DNA from: Kiritimatiellia bacterium
GTDB lineage: Bacteria > Verrucomicrobiota > Kiritimatiellia > CAIQIC01 > Lenti-01
Direction of reading: 5' to 3'
Assembly: GCA_017527155.1 (NCBI GenBank)
Contig: JAFXQI010000042.1
Span: 67,600-131,599 of the forward strand
DNA length: 64,000 nt
Of this stretch, positions 8,192 through 48,632 are shown in pieces. Within the stretch, counting starts at the first letter, position 1. Each line of letters begins with the position of its first letter. Both the position numbers and the translations under genes were made by a program. The notes under the pieces were generated by a model that was given only the letters and a program-made list of their open reading frames with translations, had not been told where the DNA came from and searched no databases.

Positions 8192-9040
8192 TCACTTTCC
8201 CTCGTCTTCCTCGTCTTCCTCGTCCTCTTCCTCGTCGTCTTCGTCGAACTCGTCCTCGTCCTCGTCGAATTCGTCGTCCTCGTCGAATTCGTCGGTTTCT
8301 TCCTCTTCTTCCTCGGCGGGCATCTCGGCGGCGGCCTCGACGGCTTCGATCTTCATCTGGTTCGGGTCTTCCGGCGGCTGCGGCGGGGTGTCGTCGGCGT
8401 CGTCTCCGCGGGACTTGCGGTCGTTGCCGTAGCGGGCGGCCTGCTCCGCCTCGATTCGGCGGAGCTCGTCCGTGCCCGGCAGGTCGTCGAGGTTCTTGAG
8501 CCCGAAGTGCTCCATGAACTTCTGCGTCGTCCCGAACATCCACGGCCGGCCCGGCAGCTCGCTGCGCCCCACCACCCGCACCAGCTGCAGGTCGAGAAGG
8601 TTCTTCAGGATCGCGTCCACGGCCACGCCGCGCACCGCCTCGATTTCCGAGCGCACGCACGGCTGCCGGTACGCGATGATCGCCAGCGTCTCCAGCGCCG
8701 GCAGCGAGAGCCTCGTCCCGCGCCCCTTCTGGAGCATCGTGCGGAGCCACGGACCGCAGTTCGCGTCGTTTTCCAGACGCCACCCGCCCGCCACCTCGAT
8801 CAGGTGGAACCCCGTCTTGCGGTCCGTCAGGTCCCTCCCCAGCTCCCCGAGCGCCTCCAGCACGAGCTTCTCGTCCGCCTTCGCGAAGTCGGCGGTGATG
8901 CCGCCGCGCCGCTCCGCCGTCGCCTTCAGCACGCGGCGTATCTCCGCGACCGGCAGCGGGTCCTTGCGCACGAACAGCATCGCGCCGATGATCTGCTTCA
9001 GCACCGGCAGCGCGAAATCACGGGTTTCCGTCGGACTCAT
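8192..9040 (-). CDS. scpB: Segregation and condensation protein B with an acidic E/D-rich C-terminal tail
   Basis: Start MSPTETRDFALPVLKQIIGAMLFV (M15 of ORF 8192..9082). The ScpB winged-helix region (LETLAIIAYRQPCVRSEIEAVRGV) is present. The C-terminus is EEEEEETDEFDEDDEFDEDEDEFDEDDEEEDEEDEEDEGK. Confidence 0.75.
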   Translation of the reverse strand: MSPTETRDFALPVLKQIIGAMLFVRKDPLPVAEIRRVLKATAERRGGITADFAKADEKLVLEALGELGRDLTDRKTGFHLIEVAGGWRLENDANCGPWLRTMLQKGRGTRLSLPALETLAIIAYRQPCVRSEIEAVRGVAVDAILKNLLDLQLVRVVGRSELPGRPWMFGTTQKFMEHFGLKNLDDLPGTDELRRIEAEQAARYGNDRKSRGDDADDTPPQPPEDPNQMKIEAVEAAAEMPAEEEEEETDEFDEDDEFDEDEDEFDEDDEEEDEEDEEDEGK

Positions 9041-9959
9041 CTTCAACCTTCTCCTCTTCCGCTTCCGCATCGGCGCCCGCATCCGCGTCCACCGCCGGGG
9101 CTCCGTCCGCGAGCGGCAACGTGCCGGTTTCCGGCGCGGGGGCGGCGTTGAGCTTCTTGCGGCGCCGCAGGATGGCGGCCGTCTGCGGGTCCTCGGCCGG
9201 GGCCTCGTCCTCGGGCTTCGCGCCCTCGGGCGGGATGTCCCGGTGCTCGATGAAAATCTCCCCGTACGTCTCCGACTGCACCGCGCGCGCCTGCCGGAGG
9301 CGGATCAGCTCCAGCAGCGCCAGGAACGTGCACGCGATCTCGTTGCGCGAGCGCATCTTGTCGAGCATCCCCGACAGCGAGAACCGCCGCTCCCGGCGGA
9401 GCCGGAGCCCCAGCGACTCGATCTTGTCGGCGACCGTGTAGCGTTCGGCGAAGATTTCCCGGAGCTCCTCGTCCTTGACCTTCTTGAGCGCCTCGTTGAA
9501 CGCGTTGATCAGGTCGAACAGCCCCACGTCGTGGAGCGCCACCTCCGGCTCGCGGCCGAGGACCGCCTCCGTCCCCTCGCGGCCGAAGATGTCCTCCCGC
9601 CGCACCTCCAGCTCCTCCAGGTGGAGCGCCGCGTCCTTGAACTTCTTGTACTCGACCAGCTGCCGGACCAGATCCCACCGCGGATCCTCCTCCTCGGCCT
9701 CCTCCTCGGGCCGGACCTCGGCGGGCAGCAGCATCCGGCTCTTGATCATCATCAGCGTGGCGGCCATGACCAGGAACTCCCCCGCGACGTTGAGGTCGAG
9801 CCGCTTCATCATCTCGAGGTACTCGATGTACTGCCTGGTGACGCTCTCCATCGGGATGTTGCTGATGTCCAGCTCGTCCTTCTTGATGAGGTACAACAGC
9901 AGATCGAGAGGTCCCTCGAAGACCTCCAGCTTGACCTTGTATTCCTCGTTCCTGTCCAT
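9018..9959 (-). CDS. scpA: Segregation and condensation protein A
   Basis: Start MDRNEEYKVKLEVFEGPLDLLLYLIKKDELDI (M149 of ORF 9018..10403) is the ScpA signature. The 3' end overlaps the scpB start by about 22 nt. Confidence 0.75.
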   Translation of the reverse strand: MDRNEEYKVKLEVFEGPLDLLLYLIKKDELDISNIPMESVTRQYIEYLEMMKRLDLNVAGEFLVMAATLMMIKSRMLLPAEVRPEEEAEEEDPRWDLVRQLVEYKKFKDAALHLEELEVRREDIFGREGTEAVLGREPEVALHDVGLFDLINAFNEALKKVKDEELREIFAERYTVADKIESLGLRLRRERRFSLSGMLDKMRSRNEIACTFLALLELIRLRQARAVQSETYGEIFIEHRDIPPEGAKPEDEAPAEDPQTAAILRRRKKLNAAPAPETGTLPLADGAPAVDADAGADAEAEEEKVEDESDGNP

Positions 9960-10305
9960 GTGGGCGTTTGTCCGTTCAGTGGCAATCTTTTCCACTTTAC
10001 CCTCTCCCCCCGCCCGGGGCAACGCCAAACCCAACGCCAAACCCAACGTCGGCCTGCTCCTGCCTCCAGCGTCCCAGCCGTTGTCCGCGCAAGGTTCCGC
10101 CCCCGGAACAGGCACCACCGGGGTTTTCCCGCTTCGGCCCTGTCCGCATCCGGAGGCTTGTACATGGCGGAGATGCGCCCGCGGAGGACCGGAACGGAGG
10201 TCCGGCACGCGCAAAAACGGTTGACATGGAAGGGAAATGGGGGATGATGGCCGGTGTTCTTGCCGAGCAAGCGGCAACCAAACCAAACAAGGAGTGAAAC
10301 AATCC

Positions 10306-11154
10306 ATGAAGAAGATGATGACCGCCCTGATGCTGGCCGCCCTGGCCGCGTCGATGGCCACGGTTTCCGCGAGCGCGGAGGAAGTGACCCAGGAAGAAGC
10401 CAACTACGCCGTGACCGTCAGCGCCGACGTGCTGAGCGCCTACGTCTCCAAGGGCGTGACCGGCAACGACGAGCCCGTGTTCCAGCCCGACGTGTACGTC
10501 GAGATGCCGTACGGCTTCAGCTTCGACGTCTGGGCCAACATGAACATCACCGACGCCAACTGCAACTGGGATCCCAAGACCGGCGGCAAGTGGTCCGAAT
10601 TCGACCTGACCCTCGACTGGACGGTTCCGATCGAAGGCCCCGTCTCCCTCACCTTCGGCGGCACGTACTTCGTGTACCCGCAGGCCAAGGGCGATGTCAT
10701 CGTCGCGACCGAGGAAGAAGCCGAGAACGTCAAGGCCGGCGCCCCCGCCGACGGCGACTACGAGCTCTTCGTCAAGGCCGGTGTGGATTGCCTCCTCCAG
10801 CCCGCACTCGAGTTCTACCACGACTGCCAGTCCAGCAGCGACTGGTACTTCCTCGGCAAGATCGGCCACGACTTCGAACTGACCGATCTCCTCGGCCTCC
10901 ACCTCGGCGCCACCGTCGGCTTCGTCGGCGACGACTTCGCCGAACGCTACGGCTCCGACGACGGCGCGGCCTTCTCGCACGCCCAGTTTGACGCCAAGCT
11001 CGGCTACGCGGTGACGGACGCCCTCGAAGTCCACGCCAAGGCCAGCTTCAGCACGCTGATCGACGGCGACATCCGCGACGGCGTCAAGGACAGCTACGAC
11101 GACATCGACTGCGAAATCTTCTACGGCGGCGTCGGCTGCGGCTACACGTTCTGA
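10306..11154 (+). CDS. Secreted protein, predicted outer-membrane beta-barrel (function unknown)
   Basis: AAGGAG sits 10 nt upstream of the ATG. The signal peptide is MKKMMTALMLAALAASMATVSASA. Amphipathic strands recur (YAVTVSADVLSAYV, VSLTFGGTYFVY, LGLHLGATVGFVG). The C-terminal ...GVGCGYTF ends in Phe, as in beta-barrel OMPs. Confidence 0.5.
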   Translation: MKKMMTALMLAALAASMATVSASAEEVTQEEANYAVTVSADVLSAYVSKGVTGNDEPVFQPDVYVEMPYGFSFDVWANMNITDANCNWDPKTGGKWSEFDLTLDWTVPIEGPVSLTFGGTYFVYPQAKGDVIVATEEEAENVKAGAPADGDYELFVKAGVDCLLQPALEFYHDCQSSSDWYFLGKIGHDFELTDLLGLHLGATVGFVGDDFAERYGSDDGAAFSHAQFDAKLGYAVTDALEVHAKASFSTLIDGDIRDGVKDSYDDIDCEIFYGGVGCGYTF

Positions 11155-11175
11155 TCCACCGGACAACCGAACGGA

Positions 11176-11216
11176 AGAAAGGCGTCCCCTCCGGGGGGCG
11201 CCTTTCGGCTTTCCGG
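11176..11216 (+). terminator. Rho-independent terminator candidate downstream of the beta-barrel gene
   Basis: aaaggcgtcccc-tcc-ggggggcgccttt forms a GC-rich hairpin with a 1-nt stem imperfection, followed by cggctttcc. Confidence 0.45.
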
Positions 11217-11444
11217 GGTGGGGGAGACCGGTTTTCCATGGGCTGGAGGATTGCGGAAAATTGGAGAAACAGTTTGGATTTTCCACGATCTCGCAAGATG
11301 TCGGGAATGGGGGTGCGGGGGCGGACGGGGAGGGGCGGCGGGGCGGAAAATCGGGTTGAATGCGGAGGAGGGGTGTGGTGGAATGGACACATGGATGATG
11401 GCACGGGACAGTACGGACGGCCGGTCGGGCAGGCCAGGGGCGTG

Positions 11445-12101
11445 ATGGTGGCGGCGCTGGCGGTGGCGTTGCTGCTGGGTGCCGTGGCGGCGCGGGCCGG
11501 GGATTTCGCGGTGCTGGCAGGGGCGGACACGAAGGCGGGCTACCTGGCGCGGCTGCTGATCAACGAGACGCCGTTCCCGGGGGAGCGGGGGTACGTGAGC
11601 GAAGAGGACACGGAGTCGGCGATGCGGGAGGTGCTGTTCGTGCTGCACTCGCGCATCAAGGACATCCCCGCGGGATACAAGCAGGAAGAGATCGCGGCGG
11701 TGCGGACGGGCGACATCCTCGACCTCATCACCGCCCGGAACCAGTGCGAGGGGTTTTCGCGCGACGCGGCGGGGAACCGCACGATGGCGCCGCGCGTGGG
11801 GGAGCGCATCAACTACCTGATGAAGATCGCCAACAGCGGCAAGGCGCCGGGGCGCTTCGCGCGGCTGATCAACTACGCGCAGTCGCTGGCCACGGCCTAT
11901 TTCGCGACCGGGCCGCAGGGGAGCGACCTGTTCGCCAACCTCTCGGTCGTGGGGGGCGTCCCCGTCACGGGGCGCGCCTACTCGTGGATGACGGGCCAGG
12001 ACATGTACCATCCCGGCGGCAATTTCGTGCGCATCCCCGAGTCCCAGCACGGGTTGCTCGGCGGCAACCGTTTCTTCACTTTGCGAAAGGATCCAAAATG
12101 A
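11445..12101 (+). CDS. Hypothetical secreted protein
   Basis: Signal-peptide-like MVAALAVALLLGAVAARAG begins at M70 of ORF 11238..12101; an alternative start is MDDGT at 11391. No recognisable family. The stop overlaps the start of the next gene. Confidence 0.4.
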   Translation: MVAALAVALLLGAVAARAGDFAVLAGADTKAGYLARLLINETPFPGERGYVSEEDTESAMREVLFVLHSRIKDIPAGYKQEEIAAVRTGDILDLITARNQCEGFSRDAAGNRTMAPRVGERINYLMKIANSGKAPGRFARLINYAQSLATAYFATGPQGSDLFANLSVVGGVPVTGRAYSWMTGQDMYHPGGNFVRIPESQHGLLGGNRFFTLRKDPK

Positions 12102-13009
12102 AACACGCGTTTTCCTTCTCCTGCGCGATGGCGCTTCTCCTCGCCGCGACCGCCGCCGCGCCGTGCCGCGCGGTGGCTGCCGACCCGCCGGCGGCGGTGA
12201 TGGAGGAGCCGTTCCTGGCCGAGGTCGCGTTGCACCTGTACGCGTGGTTCCTCGACGAAAAGGACTACGATCCGGAGCGCCTCGGCGACGGCGCCAAACT
12301 CGTGTTCCGCGTGCGGCGGCCGGAGGTGAAGGCCGACGAGGGCGACAACAGCGAATGGGCCGACATCCGGATTCCGCAGCTCAACCTCGGCGCGACGGTC
12401 AAGCGGCCGGATTACGCCATCGAGGAGCTCGGCGTCGAGGTGCGCAGTTCGAAGTTCCGCATCGTGAACGTGTACCGGCTGGAGGCGGAAAACCGCGAGT
12501 TCCCCGAGGAGGAGGACTGGCGCACCGTCGAATGCGACCTGCAGCGCTTGATGGGCACGCTGCGGGACTCCCCGGCGCGGGGGACGTTTCCCGACCAGGC
12601 GCTCAGCGAACGCCTCTACCTGGCCTGCTGCCGGCAGCTGGAGATCGATCCCGACGCCCGGGGGACCGGCGACCAGATCATCCACATCGCGCCGATGTCG
12701 CCGGTGGCCAACGAGGTGTGGGTGTTCCTGGAAAACCAGAACCTGTTCATGCAGTTCACGTCCGACACCGACATCGAGAACCCGGAGCTGTGGACCGCGC
12801 AGCAGTTGCGGGTGCGCACGATCGACGCGGCGAACAACACGGTGGTCTCGATGGAGGAGATGCCGGGCAGCAACGTGTACGTGACGCGCGACCAGATCGG
12901 GCGCTTGCTCTACAACTGCATCGTCTTCGGCAAGCGCATCCTGGTCGTGACCCCGGACGACCCGGACGCTCCCGAGGAAATCCGGGAAAACGTGAAGGCG
13001 AACTGGTGA
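12098..13009 (+). CDS. Hypothetical secreted protein
   Basis: MKHAFSFSCAMALLLAATAAAPCRAVAADP is a signal peptide. The gene spans 303 aa with no recognised domain. Its ATG overlaps the upstream stop (ATGA). Confidence 0.5.
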   Translation: MKHAFSFSCAMALLLAATAAAPCRAVAADPPAAVMEEPFLAEVALHLYAWFLDEKDYDPERLGDGAKLVFRVRRPEVKADEGDNSEWADIRIPQLNLGATVKRPDYAIEELGVEVRSSKFRIVNVYRLEAENREFPEEEDWRTVECDLQRLMGTLRDSPARGTFPDQALSERLYLACCRQLEIDPDARGTGDQIIHIAPMSPVANEVWVFLENQNLFMQFTSDTDIENPELWTAQQLRVRTIDAANNTVVSMEEMPGSNVYVTRDQIGRLLYNCIVFGKRILVVTPDDPDAPEEIRENVKANW

Positions 13010-13122
13010 CGGAGGGTGGGGGAGGGGGACCGGGGGCGGCGCTTTTCCCGTGCATTCCGGGGCGGGATGTGCGATGAAGGGGGCCTGCATACGGCAACCC
13101 CGCAAACCAGAAGGAGTTTTTT

Positions 13123-14790
13123 ATGGCCGGCGAATACATCTTCACGCTCAACCACCTATCCAAGACGCACGACCGGACGACGGTGCTCGACGACATCACG
13201 CTGTCGTTCTTCTTCGGCGCCAAGATCGGCGTCATCGGCGGCAACGGCGCCGGCAAATCGACGCTGCTGCGCATCCTCGCGGGCCAGGACAAGGATTACC
13301 ACGGCGAGTGCATCATCGCGCAGGGGCTGCGGATCGGGTACCTTCCGCAGGAGCCGCAGCTCGACCCGTCGAAGGACGTCGCGGGCAATGTCGCGGAGGG
13401 CGCCGCCGCCGCGCAGGCCATCCTCGACCGCTACGACGAGCTCTGCGACAAGCTCGGCGGCGACCTCTCCGACGATGAGTCCGCGAAGATCGGCGACGAG
13501 ATGGACCGCCTCCAGTCCATCATCGACGCCCGCGACCTCTGGAGCCTCGACAGCCAGATCGAGCGCGCCATGGACGCCCTGCGCCTGCCGCCCGGCGATG
13601 CCGACGTGACAAAACTCTCCGGCGGCGAGAAGCGCCGCGTGGCCCTCTGCCGCCTGCTGCTCTCGAATCCCGACGCGCTGCTCCTCGACGAGCCGACGAA
13701 CCACCTCGACGCGGAGACGGTCGCCTGGCTGGAGGAGTACCTCAAGAAGTTCGCCGGGACGCTCGTCGTCGTGACCCACGACCGCTACTTCCTCAACGAC
13801 GTCACCGAATGGATCCTCGAAATGGACGGCGGCCACGGCTACCCCTACAAGGGCAACTACGAGCAGTGGCTCGAAGCCAAGCGCGCGCAGGCCGCCGTCG
13901 CCAGCAAGCAGAACGCGTCGCGCCAGAAGATGCTCGACCGCGAACTCGAGTGGATCCGCCTCAATCCCACCGGCCGCATGAGCAAGAACAAGGCCCGCCT
14001 CGCCCGCTACGAGGAACTCGCCGCCAAGCAGGTCGACACCCGCGAGGACACGCTCGAAATCCAGATTCCGTCCGGCAAGCGCCTCGGCGACCTCGTCGTG
14101 CGCGCGGACGGGCTGCGGAAGGTGTACGGCAACCGGCTCGTCATGGACAACGTGTCGTTCAACCTGCCGCGCGGCGGCATCGTCGGCGTCATCGGCCCCA
14201 ACGGCGCCGGCAAGACGACGCTCCTGCGCATGATCGTCGGCGAGGAGAAGCCCGACGGCGGAACCCTCACCGTCGGCGAGACGGTGGAGCTCTCCTACGT
14301 CAACCAGTTCCGCGACGAGCTGAAGGCGGAGAACACCGTGTTCGAGGAAATCACCGGCGGCCAGGAAACCCTCGACCTCGGCGGCAAGCCGATGAACGCG
14401 CGCGCCTACTGCACGCGGTTCAACTTCCGCGGCGCCGACCAGCAGAAGAAGGTCGGCGAGCTCTCCGGCGGCGAACGCAACCGCGTGCACCTCGCCAAGC
14501 TGCTGCGGCGCGGCGGCAACCTGCTGCTGCTCGACGAACCGACCAACGACCTCGACGTCACGACCCTGCGCGCCCTGGAGGAAGGCATCCAGAACTTCGG
14601 CGGGTGCGCCGTCGTGGTCAGCCACGACCGCTGGTTCCTCGACCGCATCGCGACCCACATCCTCGCCTTCGAGGACGACGGCTCCGTCACCTGGTTCGAA
14701 GGCAACTTCGAAGGCTACCACGAACAGCGCCGCCGTCTCCTCGGCGACGCCGCCGACCAGCCCAAGCGCATCCGCTTCCGTCCCATCTGA
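13123..14790 (+). CDS. ettA: Energy-dependent translational throttle protein EttA (ABC-F ATPase)
   Basis: MAGEYIFTLNHLSKTHDRTTVLDDITLSFFFGAKIGVIGGNGAGKSTLLRIL... has two ABC cassettes over 555 aa. AAGGAG precedes the ATG. Confidence 0.9.
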   Translation: MAGEYIFTLNHLSKTHDRTTVLDDITLSFFFGAKIGVIGGNGAGKSTLLRILAGQDKDYHGECIIAQGLRIGYLPQEPQLDPSKDVAGNVAEGAAAAQAILDRYDELCDKLGGDLSDDESAKIGDEMDRLQSIIDARDLWSLDSQIERAMDALRLPPGDADVTKLSGGEKRRVALCRLLLSNPDALLLDEPTNHLDAETVAWLEEYLKKFAGTLVVVTHDRYFLNDVTEWILEMDGGHGYPYKGNYEQWLEAKRAQAAVASKQNASRQKMLDRELEWIRLNPTGRMSKNKARLARYEELAAKQVDTREDTLEIQIPSGKRLGDLVVRADGLRKVYGNRLVMDNVSFNLPRGGIVGVIGPNGAGKTTLLRMIVGEEKPDGGTLTVGETVELSYVNQFRDELKAENTVFEEITGGQETLDLGGKPMNARAYCTRFNFRGADQQKKVGELSGGERNRVHLAKLLRRGGNLLLLDEPTNDLDVTTLRALEEGIQNFGGCAVVVSHDRWFLDRIATHILAFEDDGSVTWFEGNFEGYHEQRRRLLGDAADQPKRIRFRPI

Positions 14791-17385: not shown

Positions 17386-18255
17386 CTACAGTCCGGGAGG
17401 CAATCCCGGCCCGGGCGGCAGGAACCCCGTCAGCACCTCTGTCCTCAATGCCTCCAGCTTCGGCGGCAGGTCGCGCGCCTGCAGGAAATCCACCAGCTCG
17501 CGGCGGGCGTTTTCCAGCATTACTTCGTCGGGCGGCTTCCCTCCGGCGCCCCCCGGACGCGGCAGGCGCCGCAGGCCCAGCGCGTCGTTCACGTGCGATT
17601 GCAGGCGGGTGAAATTCCAGTGCGCCCGCATCAGGCGCGAGAGGCGGCGTTTCGCCGCCGCGTATTGCGCCTGCAACACCGGGGGAACCGCTGCGGAAGC
17701 CTCCTCGCCGGGCAGCAACCATTCCAGCGGAAGCCGTTCGTCCAGGGCCAGAAGGGCGCGGAGGCGGACGGCGAGGCGCATGTAGCGCATGAGGGTCGAG
17801 TAGTTCATCCCGATGCGGTTGTCGGCCAGCCAGCCCCGGACGCCGCGGCCACGGCCCCGGATGCGTTTTGCGCCCGAAGGAGAGATATCGTAGAGGTTGC
17901 TGCGGTCGAGCGTCGGCGCCAGGTCCGCCAGGCGCGACCCGATCCGCAGGCGCACCGCGAGCGTGCGGGGCCGTACCGCCGCGTCGTCGGCGAACTCCTC
18001 CGGCGTCGGCGTCCCGCGCAGCGACGGCGAGGGCGGCCGCGGCACACGGAGACGGGTCCGGCGGCGCAGCTCGGAGAGGATGGCCTGTCCGCTGTCGGCC
18101 AGCCAGCTGCCGAGGGCGGCCGCCGAGAGCGCGGCGATCCCCGCGACGGCGACGGGCAGGACCACGGGCAGGGCAAGAGGCAGGGCGTAGGCGCGGGCGA
18201 CGTCGCCGGCAATCCCGGCGGCCTCGCGGAGGGTGTATTTGACCGTGTTGTTCAT
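17386..18255 (-). CDS. Hypothetical membrane-anchored protein, paralog family copy 2
   Basis: Start [23 protein letters not shown] (M61 of ORF 17386..18435). About 70 % identity to copies 1 and 3. The stop lies 105 nt upstream of dapA. Confidence 0.55.
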   Translation of the reverse strand: MNNTVKYTLREAAGIAGDVARAYALPLALPVVLPVAVAGIAALSAAALGSWLADSGQAILSELRRRTRLRVPRPPSPSLRGTPTPEEFADDAAVRPRTLAVRLRIGSRLADLAPTLDRSNLYDISPSGAKRIRGRGRGVRGWLADNRIGMNYSTLMRYMRLAVRLRALLALDERLPLEWLLPGEEASAAVPPVLQAQYAAAKRRLSRLMRAHWNFTRLQSHVNDALGLRRLPRPGGAGGKPPDEVMLENARRELVDFLQARDLPPKLEALRTEVLTGFLPPGPGLPPGL

Positions 18256-18318
18256 GGGCGGGAGCATGACGGTTGGGCTTGTGGAAGTCAAGTGTTTTTC
18301 CTGTTTCCAAAAGTGGCA
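18256..18318 (-). promoter_or_regulatory. Conserved upstream element of the paralog family, copy 2
   Basis: Gene orientation reads ...CACTTTTGGAAACAGGAAAAACACTTGACT-TCCACAAGCCCAACCGT-CATGCT-CCCGCCC-ATG. Spacing is the same as in copies 1 and 3. Confidence 0.35.
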
Positions 18319-18449
18319 GCGGTCCCGGGGAGTGAGGAGTGAATGGGAGGGGAAGAGGGGACTCTGGCGGTGAGGGCGGGGATGACGATGGAAGGGGGTG
18401 TTCCGCGGCGGGCGGGGCGGGCTGGACTTTTGCACGGGGGGGTGGCAAG

Positions 18450-20510
18450 ATGCGGCGCATGAAACACGGGCATTTTTCGAGTTTGGGCACGCGGATCCTC
18501 GCGGCGGCCGCGCTGGCGGCGGCGCTTCGGGGCGCCGCGCCGGCGGTGGCGCGGGCGCAGGAGGCGGAGGGCGGGGCGGTCCCGTCGGTGCAGTTCAATT
18601 TCGAGCAGGCGGACATCCGGCTCGTCACGAAGCTGGTGGGGCAGTGGACCGGGCGGACCATCATCGTGCCGGAAGGGGTGCAGGGCAAGCTGACGATCCT
18701 GACGCGCGGGGCGGTCCCCGCGGACGAGGTGTGGCCGCTGTACCTGCGGGCGCTGGAGGCGGCCGGGTACGCGGTGCGCGACGAGGGGGTGGCATGGCGC
18801 GTCGCGGCGCTGCCGGGCGCGGAGGCTCCGGTGACGGCGGGCGGCGCGGGGGACGGCGCCGAGGGCGGGCTGGTCACGGAAATCGTGCGGCTGAAGCACG
18901 TGGGGGCCGCGGACGTGAAGAAGGTGTTCGAGGGCATGGTGCGCGGCGGACGCGAGGGGGCACTGGAGGCGTTCGTGCCGGGCAACCACCTGCTGGTGAC
19001 GGGGACGGCCACGGAAGTGGCGCGCATCAAGTCGCTGGCGGAGCAGCTGGACCAGCCGGGGGCCGGCAGCGCGGTGGAGGTGGTCAAGCTGCAGAACGCG
19101 TCGGCGGAGGACGTGGCGGAGCAGCTGCGGGCGACGTTCGGGGCGTCGGACAGCGCGGCGTCGCGGGTCCAGAAGCACATGGCGCAGGTGACGGCCGGCG
19201 CGGGGGCGGGTCCGGCGGAGTTCTCGGTCGTGGCGGTGCCGCAGGCGAACAGCCTGGTGCTGGTGGGGCTGCCGGTGCAGATCGCGGACATGAAGCGCAT
19301 CCTCGAGAAGATGGATGTGGAGAACGCGGACGGCTTCGGGCGGCTGCGGGCGATTTTCCTGCAATACCTGTCGGCGGAGGAGGCGGCGAAGAGCCTCAAC
19401 GCGCTGCTGGGCAAGTCGGCGGAGGCGGAGCCGGGGCGGCGGTCGATCGCGATCGAGCCGAGCGTGGCGAACAACGCGCTGCTGGTGGACGCGCGGGGCA
19501 AGGATTTCGATTACGTGAAACGGCTGGTGGAGCAGCTGGACCAGGTTCCGCAGCAGGTGCTGGTGGAGGTGCTGATCGCGGAGGTGGACTTGGAGAAAGG
19601 CCTCGACCTGGGCGTGGAGTGGTTCGGCATCGAGCAGCCGGACGGGAGCGGCACGGGCGGCTTCGGGCGCACGCGCTACGGCGAGAGCGATTCGATGATG
19701 CAGCTGCTCGGCGAGGGCAAGTTCCCGCAGGGGCTGGCGGCGGGCGTGCTGAGCGGGACGTTCACGGCGCCCGACGGCACGGTCTACAACCAGATGCCGT
19801 TCTACCTGCGCGCGGTCGCCGGCGACAAGGACATCAAGATCCTTTCCAACATCCCGCTCTGGGCGCAGAACAACCTCGAAGCGAGCGTGAGCGTGGGGGA
19901 GAACATCCCGATCCTGAAGTCGTCGGTGGAGGGCTCCGGCAGCGACCGGGACTACATCCAGAACATCGAGCGGCGCGACGTCGGCATCACGCTGACCCTG
20001 ACGCCGCACGTGAACCCGAACCGGGAAATCCAGCTCGACCTCAACCCGTGCATCGAGACCGTGGTGGCGTCCGCCTCCGGCGACGCCGCGGCGGCGTACA
20101 CCCCGACCATCTCCCGGCGCGAAGTCAAGACGACCATCACCGTTCCCGACCGCAAGACCGTGGTCATCAGCGGCCTCATCCGCGAGGACACGAGCCGCAT
20201 CGAGAGCAAGGTGCCGATCCTGGGCGACATCCCGCTGCTGGGGTGGCTGTTCCGGTCGTCGAGCGACGTGAACAAGCGGACGAACCTGCTGATCTTCGTG
20301 ACCCCGCGCATCGTGACCGACGCCGCCGAAGCCGAAGCCGAGCGCGCGCGCCTCGAAGGCTCCGCCACGCTGCGCAACGCCGTCGACGACATCCAGCAGC
20401 CCTCGCCCGAGGCGGAAATCGCCGACATGGAAGCGCGGGACAAGGCGGCCCGCCGCAAGGCCGCCGCCGAGCGCAAGGCCGCGAAGCGCGCCGCGGATGG
20501 GGAGCCGTGA
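18450..20510 (+). CDS. gspD: Type II secretion system secretin GspD
   Basis: Start MRRMKHGHF (M38 of ORF 18339..20510) is followed by a signal peptide. N0/N1-type domains precede the secretin C-domain (VPILGDIPLLGWLFRSSSDVNKRTNLLIFVTPRIV). Confidence 0.85.
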   Translation: MRRMKHGHFSSLGTRILAAAALAAALRGAAPAVARAQEAEGGAVPSVQFNFEQADIRLVTKLVGQWTGRTIIVPEGVQGKLTILTRGAVPADEVWPLYLRALEAAGYAVRDEGVAWRVAALPGAEAPVTAGGAGDGAEGGLVTEIVRLKHVGAADVKKVFEGMVRGGREGALEAFVPGNHLLVTGTATEVARIKSLAEQLDQPGAGSAVEVVKLQNASAEDVAEQLRATFGASDSAASRVQKHMAQVTAGAGAGPAEFSVVAVPQANSLVLVGLPVQIADMKRILEKMDVENADGFGRLRAIFLQYLSAEEAAKSLNALLGKSAEAEPGRRSIAIEPSVANNALLVDARGKDFDYVKRLVEQLDQVPQQVLVEVLIAEVDLEKGLDLGVEWFGIEQPDGSGTGGFGRTRYGESDSMMQLLGEGKFPQGLAAGVLSGTFTAPDGTVYNQMPFYLRAVAGDKDIKILSNIPLWAQNNLEASVSVGENIPILKSSVEGSGSDRDYIQNIERRDVGITLTLTPHVNPNREIQLDLNPCIETVVASASGDAAAAYTPTISRREVKTTITVPDRKTVVISGLIREDTSRIESKVPILGDIPLLGWLFRSSSDVNKRTNLLIFVTPRIVTDAAEAEAERARLEGSATLRNAVDDIQQPSPEAEIADMEARDKAARRKAAAERKAAKRAADGEP

Positions 20511-22060
20511 GCGCGGCCGCCGCCAGCGAAGGCCTTCCGCGCGTCGAGCGCATCGAGGAGGGGTGGCTCGATCCGGCGCTGCTGGAGAGCGTGCCCGTCG
20601 AGTGGGTGCGGAGGCAGGGGATCCTCCCGGTGCGGCGCGACGGGGCGCTGTGGCTGCTCGCCGCCGACGCCTCCAACGTCCAGGCCTACGAAGACCTCTC
20701 CCTCCTGCTCGGGGCCGACGGCATCTGGGCCACCGCGCCCGCCGACGAAATCCGCCGCGCCGCCGACGCCTGCTACTTCCGCCGCGCCGGCGTCGCCGCC
20801 CCCGCCGCCGACGCCGCCCCCTCCGGCACCCCGCCCCCGCTCCCGGCGCCGCAGAGCCGCGCCGACGACCTCCTCGCGGGCGGTGCCGACGCGCCCGTCG
20901 CGCGGTACGTCAACTCCGTGCTGATCGAAGCGGTCAAGCGCGGCGCCTCCGACGTCCACGTCGAGCCCTTCGAGAGCGGTCTGGCGATCCGCTACCGCAT
21001 CGACGGCCTCCTCTACTCCCAGCCCCCGCCGCCGCCCGCGATGGCGGCGCCGCTGGTCGCGCGCCTCAAGGTGATGGCGAGCCTGGACCTCGCCGAGCGG
21101 CGCCTGCCCCAGGACGGCGTGGCGCGGGTGCGCGTCGGCGAGCGCGAGATCGACATCCGCGTCTCGTGCGTGCCGGTCGCCGAAGGCGAACGCGTGGTCC
21201 TGCGCCTCCTGCACCGCGAGAGCATCCGCTACGCGCTGGGCGACCTCGGGATGGCGACGGGGCTTCTCTCCGACTTCCGCCGCCTCCTGCGCGAACCGCA
21301 CGGGGTCATCCTGGTGACCGGCCCGACGGGCAGCGGCAAGACCACGACCCTCTACGCGGCGCTGCGCGAACTCGACACCGCGCACCTGAACGTGATGACC
21401 ATCGAAGACCCGATCGAGTACCAGCTCGAAGGCATCGGGCAAATCCAGACCCATCCGCAGATCGGCCTGACCTTCGCGAGCGGGCTGCGGCACATCCTGC
21501 GGCAGGACCCCGACGTCATCCTCGTCGGCGAGACCCGCGACATCGAGACGGCGGAAATCGCCATCCAGGCGTCGCTGACCGGGCACCTCGTCTTCACGAC
21601 CCTGCACACCAACGACGCCCCCGGCGCCGTCGTGCGCCTGACCGACATGGGGATTGCGCCCTACCTGCTCGCGTCGAGCGTCCGGGCCGTGCTGGCGCAG
21701 CGGCTGGTGCGGCGGCTGTGCCCGCACTGCCGGAGGCGGGTGGCGCTGGGGGCGGAAGAAGCGGCGCGGCTCGGCGTCGCGGGGCGCGCGGGCGCGGAGA
21801 TTTGGGAGGCGAACGCCGAAGGCTGTCCGCAGTGCCTCGGCGGCTACCGCGGCCGCACGGGCATCCACGAACTGCTGCTGGCGACGCCGGAACTGGCGGA
21901 AGCGGTACGCACGGGGGCGCCGCTGGCGGAGCTGCGGGGGATCGCGGCGCGGGGCGGCTTCACCGACATGCTCGCGGACGGCGCGGAAAAGGTGCTGCGC
22001 GGGGAGACGTCGGTGGCGGAAGTGCTGCGCGCGGTGGGTTCCCGCGAAGCGGGAGCGTGA
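20507..22060 (+). CDS. gspE: Type II secretion system ATPase GspE
   Basis: GTG start overlaps the gspD stop (GTGA). GspE features are VILVTGPTGSGKTTTLYA (Walker A), the Asp box, the His box and the CPHC...CPQC zinc tetracysteine motif. Confidence 0.85.
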   Translation: MSAAAASEGLPRVERIEEGWLDPALLESVPVEWVRRQGILPVRRDGALWLLAADASNVQAYEDLSLLLGADGIWATAPADEIRRAADACYFRRAGVAAPAADAAPSGTPPPLPAPQSRADDLLAGGADAPVARYVNSVLIEAVKRGASDVHVEPFESGLAIRYRIDGLLYSQPPPPPAMAAPLVARLKVMASLDLAERRLPQDGVARVRVGEREIDIRVSCVPVAEGERVVLRLLHRESIRYALGDLGMATGLLSDFRRLLREPHGVILVTGPTGSGKTTTLYAALRELDTAHLNVMTIEDPIEYQLEGIGQIQTHPQIGLTFASGLRHILRQDPDVILVGETRDIETAEIAIQASLTGHLVFTTLHTNDAPGAVVRLTDMGIAPYLLASSVRAVLAQRLVRRLCPHCRRRVALGAEEAARLGVAGRAGAEIWEANAEGCPQCLGGYRGRTGIHELLLATPELAEAVRTGAPLAELRGIAARGGFTDMLADGAEKVLRGETSVAEVLRAVGSREAGA

Positions 22061-47710: not shown

Positions 47711-48571
47711 TCACGGAAGAACCGTACCGCTCGCCCATCCGGCCAGCGCCTCCCGGCGCAGTGCTTCCAGTTTCGGGGGCAGGTCGCCGGCCTGCACGAA
47801 ATCCGCCAGCTCGCGGCGGGTGTTCTCCGCCAAGGTCTCGTCTAGGGGCTTGCCTCCGCCGCGTCCCGGACGCGGCAGGCGCCGCACCCCCAGCGCCCCG
47901 TCCACATGCGATTGCAGGCGGCTGAAGTTCCAGTGTGCCCTGAGCAGGCGCGCGAGGCGGCGTCGGGCCGCCGCGCAATGCGCCTGCAACGCCTCCGGCA
48001 CGGCCGCGGAAGCCTCCGCGCCCGGCAGCAACCATTCCAGCGGCAGCCGTTCGTCCAGACCCAGTAGCGCGCGGAGGCGGACGGCGAGACGCATGTAGCG
48101 CATGAGGGTCGAGTAGTTCATTCCGACGCGGTTGTCCTCCAGCCAGCCCCGGACGCCGCGGCCGCGGCCGCGGATGCGCTTTGCGCCCGTCGGCGAGATG
48201 TCGTAGTGGTTGCCGCGGTCGAGCGTCGGTGCCAGGTCCGCCAAGCGCGACCCGATCCGCAGGCGCACCGTCAGGGTCCGCGGGCGCACCGCCGCATCGG
48301 AGGCGAATTCCTCCGGCGTCGGCGTCCCGCGCAGGGAGGGCGATGGCGGGCGCGGCGCCCTCAGACGCGTCCGGCGGCGCAATTCGGAGAGGATGGCGCG
48401 TCCGGTGGCTCCGGCAATCCAGCTGCCGAGGGCCGCCGCCGAGAGGGCCGCGACACCGGCGAGGGCGGCGGGGACGAGGACGGGGAGGGCCAGGGAGCCG
48501 ACGTAGAACCGGGCGGTGTCGCCGGCGATGCCGGCAGCCTCCCGGAGAGCGTATTTGCAGGTGTTGTTCAT
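47711..48571 (-). CDS. Hypothetical membrane-anchored protein, paralog family copy 3
   Basis: Start [23 protein letters not shown] (M28 of ORF 47711..48652). About 70 % identity to copies 1 and 2. The stop lies 135 nt upstream of deoA. Confidence 0.55.
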   Translation of the reverse strand: MNNTCKYALREAAGIAGDTARFYVGSLALPVLVPAALAGVAALSAAALGSWIAGATGRAILSELRRRTRLRAPRPPSPSLRGTPTPEEFASDAAVRPRTLTVRLRIGSRLADLAPTLDRGNHYDISPTGAKRIRGRGRGVRGWLEDNRVGMNYSTLMRYMRLAVRLRALLGLDERLPLEWLLPGAEASAAVPEALQAHCAAARRRLARLLRAHWNFSRLQSHVDGALGVRRLPRPGRGGGKPLDETLAENTRRELADFVQAGDLPPKLEALRREALAGWASGTVLP

Positions 48572-48632
48572 GGGCGGGAGCTTGGGGAAGGGACGGTGGA
48601 AAGTCAAGGATTTTTCCTGTGTGCAAACGTGA
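48572..48632 (-). promoter_or_regulatory. Conserved upstream element of the paralog family, copy 3
   Basis: Gene orientation reads CACGTTTGCACACAGGAAAAATCCTTGACT-TTCCACCGTCCCTTCCC-CAAGCT-CCCGCCC-ATG. Confidence 0.35.

Follow-up and report, generated by a model that had tools for sequence, protein, structure and literature searches.

The closest described precedent for the gene pair presented here is the SleB–YpeB system of Bacillus, composed of a germination-specific lytic transglycosylase and its PepSY partner (PDB 4fet, 4f55 and 5boi). The sleB and ypeB genes share an operon, the two proteins co-purify, and YpeB has been proposed to be a chaperone-inhibitor, whose α+β (PepSY) domains, arranged in tandem, are predicted to wrap around the catalytic domain of SleB (bioRxiv 10.64898/2026.06.01.729290). 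Here we analyze three consecutive forward-strand genes, designated genes 1, 2 and 3, within a 64,000-nt stretch of a Kiritimatiellia bacterium (assembly GCA_017527155.1, contig JAFXQI010000042.1, positions 67,600 to 131,599 of the forward strand), hereafter called the window. An initial annotation, made from the sequence alone, had suggested that the three secreted products could be one envelope system headed by a β-barrel. Our analyses revealed that genes 2 and 3 form a coupled pair and that gene 1 is independent of them, and the region is best explained as two independent transcription units, A (10221..11206) and B (about 11344..13024). We lean, with somewhat better than even confidence, toward the reading that the pair encodes a periplasmic SleB-like peptidoglycan-cleaving enzyme and its stoichiometric partner, analogous to SleB–YpeB, with gene 1 standing apart.

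The coupling of genes 2 and 3 is the most robust feature of the region. We scanned one genome per species (GTDB, 185,579 genomes) with a gene 2 profile, which matched 159 species, and analyzed the best 80 of these 159 loci with hidden Markov models of all three families. In 77 of the 80, gene 2 is directly followed by gene 3 in the same orientation; the other three comprise a locus with a 1-kb insertion, a locus without gene 3 and a locus on a contig that ends too early. The initial annotation had pointed out that the two genes overlap by 4 nt, and this is correct (ATGA). The coupling runs much deeper than one genome shows, as the same stop/start overlap is present in 69 of the 78 scorable loci across the phyla of the Planctomycetes–Verrucomicrobia–Chlamydiae (PVC) group, and in eight more the two codons are within 13 nt of each other. 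The distance matrices of the two proteins are correlated (r = 0.75, Mantel p = 0.001), and gene 3 evolves faster, with a mean pairwise identity across phyla of 45%, compared to 59.5% for gene 2. There is one copy of the pair per locus, and no third gene is conserved around it in the 80 loci. Apparent clusters of conserved neighbors turned out to be shadow open reading frames (ORFs) of G+C-rich DNA, or generic ABC ATPases.

The pair is found in Kiritimatiellia, Verrucomicrobiota, Lentisphaerota and Planctomycetota, and homologs of all three proteins come only from Kiritimatiellia-, Verrucomicrobiota- and PVC-like metagenome bins. Pairs are also present in four bins labeled Pseudomonadales, Acidoferrum, Desulfococcus and Gemmatimonadales (L086, L099, L100 and L101), which are either mis-binned PVC contigs or cases of horizontal transfer outside the superphylum. 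The PVC-type gene 2 was not found among 2.9 million viral contigs (IMG/VR), and a phage origin was therefore set aside. Three short records (P0372, P0377 and P0446) match parts of both profiles, gene 2 and gene 3, within a single reading frame. These are probably not genuine fusions but products of a frameshift at the ATGA or of truncated assembly, and they were not used as evidence of an interaction.

According to the initial annotation, genes 2 and 3 belong to no recognizable family. This stands for direct scans against Pfam, NCBIfam and PHROGs, in which the two proteins gave only a chance-level match to DUF5065, and it falls for gene 2, which appears SleB-like by structure and profile methods. 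The AlphaFold model of gene 2 is well defined for residues from about 40 to 190 (predicted local distance difference test, pLDDT, >90), with the C-terminal 45 residues poorly defined, and its predicted fold is that of the SleB catalytic domain. The mature protein begins some 10 residues ahead of the catalytic helix, and has no N-terminal peptidoglycan-binding domain. The invariant residues and motifs of the family include N58-E59, QCxGF, VTG, W199, PGG and GGNRFFTL, among others. Glu59 is invariant in all 41 sequences of the alignment of close relatives (A1), and is at least 90% conserved in 57 distant representatives.

The relation to the Hydrolase_2 family (PF07486) became informative only after the gene 2 profile had been broadened by rebuilding it from 46 distant representatives. 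The comparison alignment comprised SleB, with its sequence verified against 4fet, and eight phage Hydrolase_2 endolysins taken from phage records. With these, hhalign gave a Prob of 60% and P = 8.5e-5, while a reversed-template control gave P = 0.08. The alignment places Glu59 on the glutamate of the SleB YGE motif, which we take to be Glu151, and also pairs HSR/NRL with NR, and QCEGF/GQFxGFS with QFS. The YGE glutamate is the essential catalytic residue of SleB (PMC12331253). A global alignment (P = 7.8e-4) is collinear through six motifs, with NR, QF(S), DPF/DPT, Trp and GNQFYTL/GxHxFY following one another in this order. Hydrolase_2 is also the commonest Pfam match among the 57 distant representatives, with seven members matching at E = 2e-3 to 0.1, always inside this domain. 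These matches score 18 to 19 bits where scores are reported, against a cut-off of 27, and are thus below the Pfam gathering threshold; gene 2 itself and 40 close relatives give no match to PF07486. Profile searches of the PDB with alignments A1, A2 and A3 yielded only chance-level matches, to designed repeat proteins, transaminases, an esterase and Rpo11.

In distant relatives, the gene 2 domain is fused to an N-acetylmuramoyl-L-alanine amidase (Amidase_2), a VanY/M15 peptidase or DUF2817, the last of which we take to be M14-peptidase-like. It also occurs as the C-terminal module of RHS-repeat proteins. A 533-residue record (P0425) combines an extracytoplasmic function (ECF) sigma-70 factor (regions 2 and 4) with a gene 2-like domain at the C-terminus that has Lys at the position of the proposed catalytic Glu, and may represent the use of an inactivated hydrolase domain as a sensor or anti-sigma module. 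Judged from fold, motif order and profile comparison, gene 2 quite probably encodes a very divergent peptidoglycan-cleaving domain of the SleB/CwlJ type.

Gene 3 has no sequence match in Pfam, NCBIfam or the PDB. Its predicted structure (pLDDT 86, predicted template modeling score 0.83) consists of two successive modules, each formed by a helix on a curved antiparallel sheet. No internal sequence repeat was detectable, and no PepSY domain was recognized. Ten polar residues are invariant among its relatives: E54, D80, D83, S85, K102, Y106, N205, N259, R269 and N273. We considered a lipoprotein anchor and rejected it, as the Cys at AAPC/R is outside a canonical lipobox and is missing from most relatives. 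By analogy with YpeB, we propose that gene 3 may be a binding partner or regulator of gene 2.

The pair resembles SleB–YpeB in several respects. In both cases an enzyme gene is followed by a partner gene in one operon, both products are exported, and the partner is built of repeated α+β modules. There are also differences. Gene 2 is about 10 to 13% identical to SleB and is under every Hydrolase_2 threshold. Whereas SleB possesses an N-terminal peptidoglycan-binding domain, gene 2 lacks it and has an extra helical insert, and gene 3, unlike YpeB, is not a PepSY protein. Moreover, the hosts of the pair are non-sporulating diderm PVC bacteria without a spore cortex, and the substrate of gene 2 cannot therefore be the muramic-δ-lactam cortex. 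The phage endolysins of the Hydrolase_2 family and the Gram-negative 'cell wall hydrolase SleB' proteins are single-domain proteins of similar size and share the motif order E...NR...QFS...DPT...W...GxHxFY with gene 2. In contrast to the phage endolysins, however, gene 2 is chromosomal, Sec-exported and accompanied by a partner gene, has no PHROG match, and is not found on viral contigs.

Based on these comparisons, the pair may work as follows. The gene 2 protein would be exported by Sec to the periplasm, where Glu59 (in the motif LLINE) would serve as the catalytic acid on glycan strands, making the protein a lytic transglycosylase or a muramidase. The gene 3 protein would be translated from one shared mRNA at a fixed ratio to the enzyme, and would likewise be exported to the periplasm, where its two α+β modules may bind the enzyme 1:1. 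The existence of such a complex is suggested by the fixed-ratio synthesis, the shared periplasmic export and the strict co-inheritance. Following the logic of YpeB and SleB, gene 3 could then control the enzyme, either by stabilizing it and holding it inactive, or by targeting it, until it is needed. The poor definition of the conserved C-terminal 45 residues of gene 2, when modeled alone, is compatible with a segment that folds in the presence of a partner, although it is no proof of one.

Several results weigh against this interpretation. The proposed link between gene 2 and SleB is remote and sub-threshold throughout: gene 2 has no direct sequence match in Pfam, NCBIfam, PHROGs or the PDB; the narrow gene 2 profile gave no significant hhalign result with SleB alone (Prob 1%) or with nine Hydrolase_2 sequences (P about 0.03); and a Foldseek search of the gene 2 model against viral structures (BFVD) returned nothing at E < 0.5. 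In the BFVD list, three 'Cell Wall Hydrolase' entries come top by template modeling score (TM-score, 0.23 to 0.32), which alone is no evidence. The distribution of the pair is patchy (159 of 185,579 species genomes), and the gene 2 family is small, with 169 representatives (E ≤ 1e-3) in an exhaustive profile search of 1.84 billion proteins. Given this patchiness, it is unlikely that the pair has a core housekeeping role throughout the PVC bacteria. The pair is also broken in places. In L038 (6585-7676), the gene next to gene 2 on its downstream side encodes an M28-like peptidase lipoprotein, with no gene 3 within 6 kb, and in L072 (6585-7628), two small secreted ORFs, one of them glycine-rich, lie between genes 2 and 3. 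In L004 (8001-16624), a gene 2 homolog (74%) is translationally coupled to an unrelated 281-residue membrane protein, and the gene 3 homolog (P0277) is located 7.5 kb downstream, on the far side of toxin-antitoxin genes (YhcG/DUF1016 and FitA-PIN), as if an island had been inserted into the pair. The sub-threshold nature of every SleB link would also suit a conserved periplasmic pair in which gene 2 is not an active peptidoglycan enzyme, but a binding or sensor module or a protein acting on another glycan, with either gene 3 as the active member or both proteins being structural. The invariant polar residues of gene 3 are in line with such an arrangement, as is the ECF sigma factor fusion with Lys for Glu, which suggests sensor use. 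We regard it as quite improbable, since every PVC-type member retains the Glu, the domain has peptidoglycan enzymes as its fusion partners, and the motifs are collinear with those of SleB from end to end. The main rival is an antibacterial toxin-immunity pair, with gene 2 as a secreted peptidoglycan-degrading effector and gene 3 as its periplasmic immunity protein, shielding the wall of the producer. Periplasmic proteins that neutralize glycan-strand-cleaving enzymes such as lysozymes and lytic transglycosylases are known (Ivy, MliC/PliC), and the effector and immunity genes of type VI systems are adjacent. An enzyme gene followed by a tightly coupled periplasmic protein fits the order of effector and immunity gene, the pair forms a discrete module whose flanks differ even among close relatives, and its distribution is patchy; furthermore, many distant relatives of gene 2 are short and without signal peptide, in the style of effectors, in addition to the RHS-borne copies. 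The RHS fusion is limited to distant relatives, however, and gene 2 itself is a stand-alone protein with its own Sec signal peptide, whereas type VI effectors, to our knowledge, lack Sec signals and are encoded near secretion genes. In the 80 loci, which hold one copy each, the pair has neither secretion-system genes nor any other conserved gene beside it, the mean identities of 59.5% and 45% are high for a conflict system, and the PVC-type gene is not on the viral contigs. Ivy and MliC themselves are not known to share an operon with their targets, and no sequence or fold match of the pair to Ivy, MliC or PliC was seen. We consider the toxin-immunity explanation unlikely.

The initial annotation had proposed a further possibility, namely that all three genes constitute a lineage-specific envelope system in which the barrel serves as the channel, genes 2 and 3 are its periplasmic partners, and attenuated read-through yields high expression of the barrel and lower expression of the partners. 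The three genes are indeed adjacent on the same strand in this species, and weak matches to MipA, the E. coli barrel to which the lytic transglycosylase MltA binds, occur in eight of the 45 gene 1 relatives. Co-occurrence in relatives was one of two points on which that annotation had staked the system, and in the context survey a single one of the 80 gene 2 loci, that of the window's own species, had a gene 1 homolog within ±6 kb. The arrangement of genes 1, 2 and 3 is confined to contigs of this species, at 97 to 99% identity. Gene 2 relatives at 92%, 90%, 82% and 74% identity are preceded by an amidohydrolase gene, an unrelated 430-residue gene, a 275-residue gene and a thioredoxin-like gene, respectively, and none of them has a barrel gene upstream. 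The neighbors of the pair differ in L001, L004, L014, L015 and L028. Even a sheep-rumen strain with 97.7% DNA identity over 11448 to 14790 (gene 2, gene 3 and EttA) has a rubrerythrin-like gene in place of gene 1, the homology to the window breaking inside the gene 2 signal peptide. Conversely, gene 1 homologs occur alone elsewhere, between hycI and namZ (79% identity) or after an RNase R gene (46%). The DNA common to the window and the former locus, L006, is restricted to 10195..11205, and since this block spans exactly the promoter, gene 1 and the hairpin, gene 1 is an independent monocistronic unit with its own promoter, Shine-Dalgarno sequence and terminator hairpin. The strong hairpin and the 236 nt between genes 1 and 2 agree with this, and nothing supports the attenuated read-through. 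None of the MipA matches is better than E = 2e-3, and other barrel families are matched as often; on account of these weak matches and the unconserved adjacency, we rejected a link between genes 1 and 2 of the MipA–MltA type. The three-gene system thus fails on co-occurrence, and it appears to us very improbable: gene 1 adjoins the pair by happenstance in this species. The case cautions that neighboring genes for secreted proteins on the same strand of one genome are weak evidence for a system.

With respect to the local DNA, homology between the window and two other loci stops abruptly at operon boundaries, at L028 1152 (window 11448) and at L027 4819 and 9477 (window 10209 and 14859). These loci belong to near-identical strains (97 to 98% DNA identity), yet different genes follow the boundaries, which indicates either that local rearrangements are frequent in these rumen Kiritimatiellae or that their metagenome bins are mosaic assemblies.

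The assignment of gene 1 as an outer-membrane barrel is supported by its signal peptide, strand alternation, C-terminal aromatic signal and family matches. In a test of conservation-weighted alternating hydrophobicity, the protein showed 64 strand-like positions, compared to 13 ± 6.6 in 500 shuffles (maximum 37), corresponding to roughly a dozen putative strands, and its longest hydrophobic run is four residues. The C-terminus, ...GCGYTF, bears the aromatic β-signal that the initial annotation had recognized, and the family consensus ends in ...SYSF. Gene 1 itself has no Pfam match. Its match to TIGR02001 of NCBIfam ('TorF family putative porin') is sub-threshold (22.4 bits, cut-off 47.15). 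Sub-threshold matches to TIGR02001 were obtained for 23 of the 45 relatives (best E = 5.4e-8), and the Pfam matches among these relatives are to Gcw_chp (8), MipA (8), OMP_b-brl (7), YaiO (1) and Phage_OMP (1), every one of which is an outer-membrane barrel family. Gene 1 shares with the TorF/Gcw_chp proteins (TIGR02001, PF09694) a size of about 250 to 280 residues, a signal peptide, an N-terminal 'YVxxG...QP' region (profile positions 1-97), an amphipathic strand pattern and a C-terminal aromatic residue. It differs from them in being under the curated cut-off, with an alignment limited to the N-terminal third (residues 1-96). The gene 1 family is found only in Kiritimatiellia- and Verrucomicrobiota-like metagenome bins. 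On this basis we regard gene 1 as a new, divergent member of the small outer-membrane barrels, distantly TorF/Gcw_chp-like, and its product is probably a small porin or channel.

The features of the region are collected in Table 1. Genes 1 and 3 have the boundaries given in the initial annotation, and the end of gene 2 likewise stands. Its start was taken to be the GTG at 11445, and is probably the upstream ATG at 11391, because it is the additional N-terminal stretch, MDDGTGQYGRPVGQARG, that gives the signal peptide its positive charges, and because this stretch is kept in close relatives; public gene calls are 236 to 242 residues long. All three proteins have Sec-type signal peptides, as had been noted, with AXA cleavage sites that can be read directly from the sequence, at VSASA/EE in gene 1, at AARA/GDF in gene 2 and at about RAVA/ADPP in gene 3. 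The Shine-Dalgarno sequence and the upstream TTGACA of gene 1 were both found as described, the former 10 nt 5' of the ATG. The latter is part of the sole sigma-70-like site in 9900..13300, with 10 of 12 matches and 0.4 such sites expected by chance. The presumed terminator after gene 1 is a perfect, G+C-rich stem, and the 81-nt region around it folds with -43.3 kcal/mol (z = -2.65). A simple terminator scan did not list this hairpin because its U-tract is weak.

Table 1. Positions of the features of the three-gene region (window coordinates).
Feature	Position	Strand	Basis or remark
Candidate sigma-70-like promoter, gene 1	10221..10248	+	TTGACA-16 nt-GATGAT; within the block conserved with L006
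Shine-Dalgarno sequence AAGGAG, gene 1	10290..10295	+	Sequence reading
Gene 1, predicted secreted outer-membrane β-barrel, 282 residues	10306..11154	+	ORF, family matches, strand alternation
Terminator-like 13-bp hairpin followed by GGCUUUCC	11177..11206	+	Folding; block shared with L006 ends at 11205
Gene 2, secreted protein, 236 residues, signal peptide residues 1-36	11391..12101	+	Putative remote SleB/CwlJ-like domain
Alternative starts of gene 2	GTG 11445, ATG 11448	+	
Codon of Glu59 (motif LLINE), proposed catalytic glutamate of gene 2	11565..11567	+	Conservation, profile alignment
ATGA, overlap of gene 2 stop and gene 3 start	12098..12101	+	Translational coupling
Gene 3, secreted protein, 303 residues, two predicted α+β modules	12098..13009	+	No known family

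The flanking genes are ordinary, with scpA and scpB upstream on the minus strand and an EttA-type ABC-F gene downstream. The ScpB-like protein (8192-9082, minus strand) has an unusually long acidic tail, ...EEEEEETDEFDEDDEFDEDEDEFDEDDEEEDEEDEEDEGK, and a short tandem repeat, (CGCCAAACCCAA) x2.5, is present at 10020-10050, between the divergently oriented scpA and gene 1. Among public genomes, the nearest come from rumen Kiritimatiellae, namely the bin RUG11196 (97%), followed by bins from sheep and goat rumen (88 to 89%). Elsewhere in the window, a segment of about 880 bp occurs in three copies (250-1126, about 17440-18313 and 47744-48627), the middle one within a 349-residue ORF on the minus strand (17386..18435). 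The first and third copies are 80 to 84% identical to 14082-14964 of L010, the counterpart of the middle copy, and the copies are a paralogous gene family or a repeated element. Type II secretion genes are located downstream of the region, at 18339-22060, where an ORF for a GspE-like ATPase comes after that of a GspD-like secretin (18339..20510). An indel of about 340 bp distinguishes L013 at the junction at window 18199/18542.

The pair is well conserved, and yet both of its proteins are without a Pfam, NCBIfam or PDB family. The cell-wall biology of PVC bacteria and their FtsZ-independent division are still poorly understood, and it was only recently that peptidoglycan was recognized in these organisms. 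In this setting, the link to the SleB fold gives gene 2 a concrete function that can be tested, and gene 3 a testable role as a regulator. It is possible, although we hold it to be doubtful, that these non-sporulating diderms use the logic of spore germination, with a SleB-type enzyme made in advance and kept as a partner-locked periplasmic 'zymogen' by gene 3 as a chaperone-inhibitor of new fold, and released upon a signal for wall remodeling or division. If so, genes 2 and 3 would be two new protein families forming a regulated autolysin system in the PVC group. Confirmation of the proposed enzyme and partner would extend the SleB–YpeB principle of an enzyme plus a chaperone-inhibitor beyond endospores, and would add a regulated peptidoglycan-cleaving module to the PVC bacteria.

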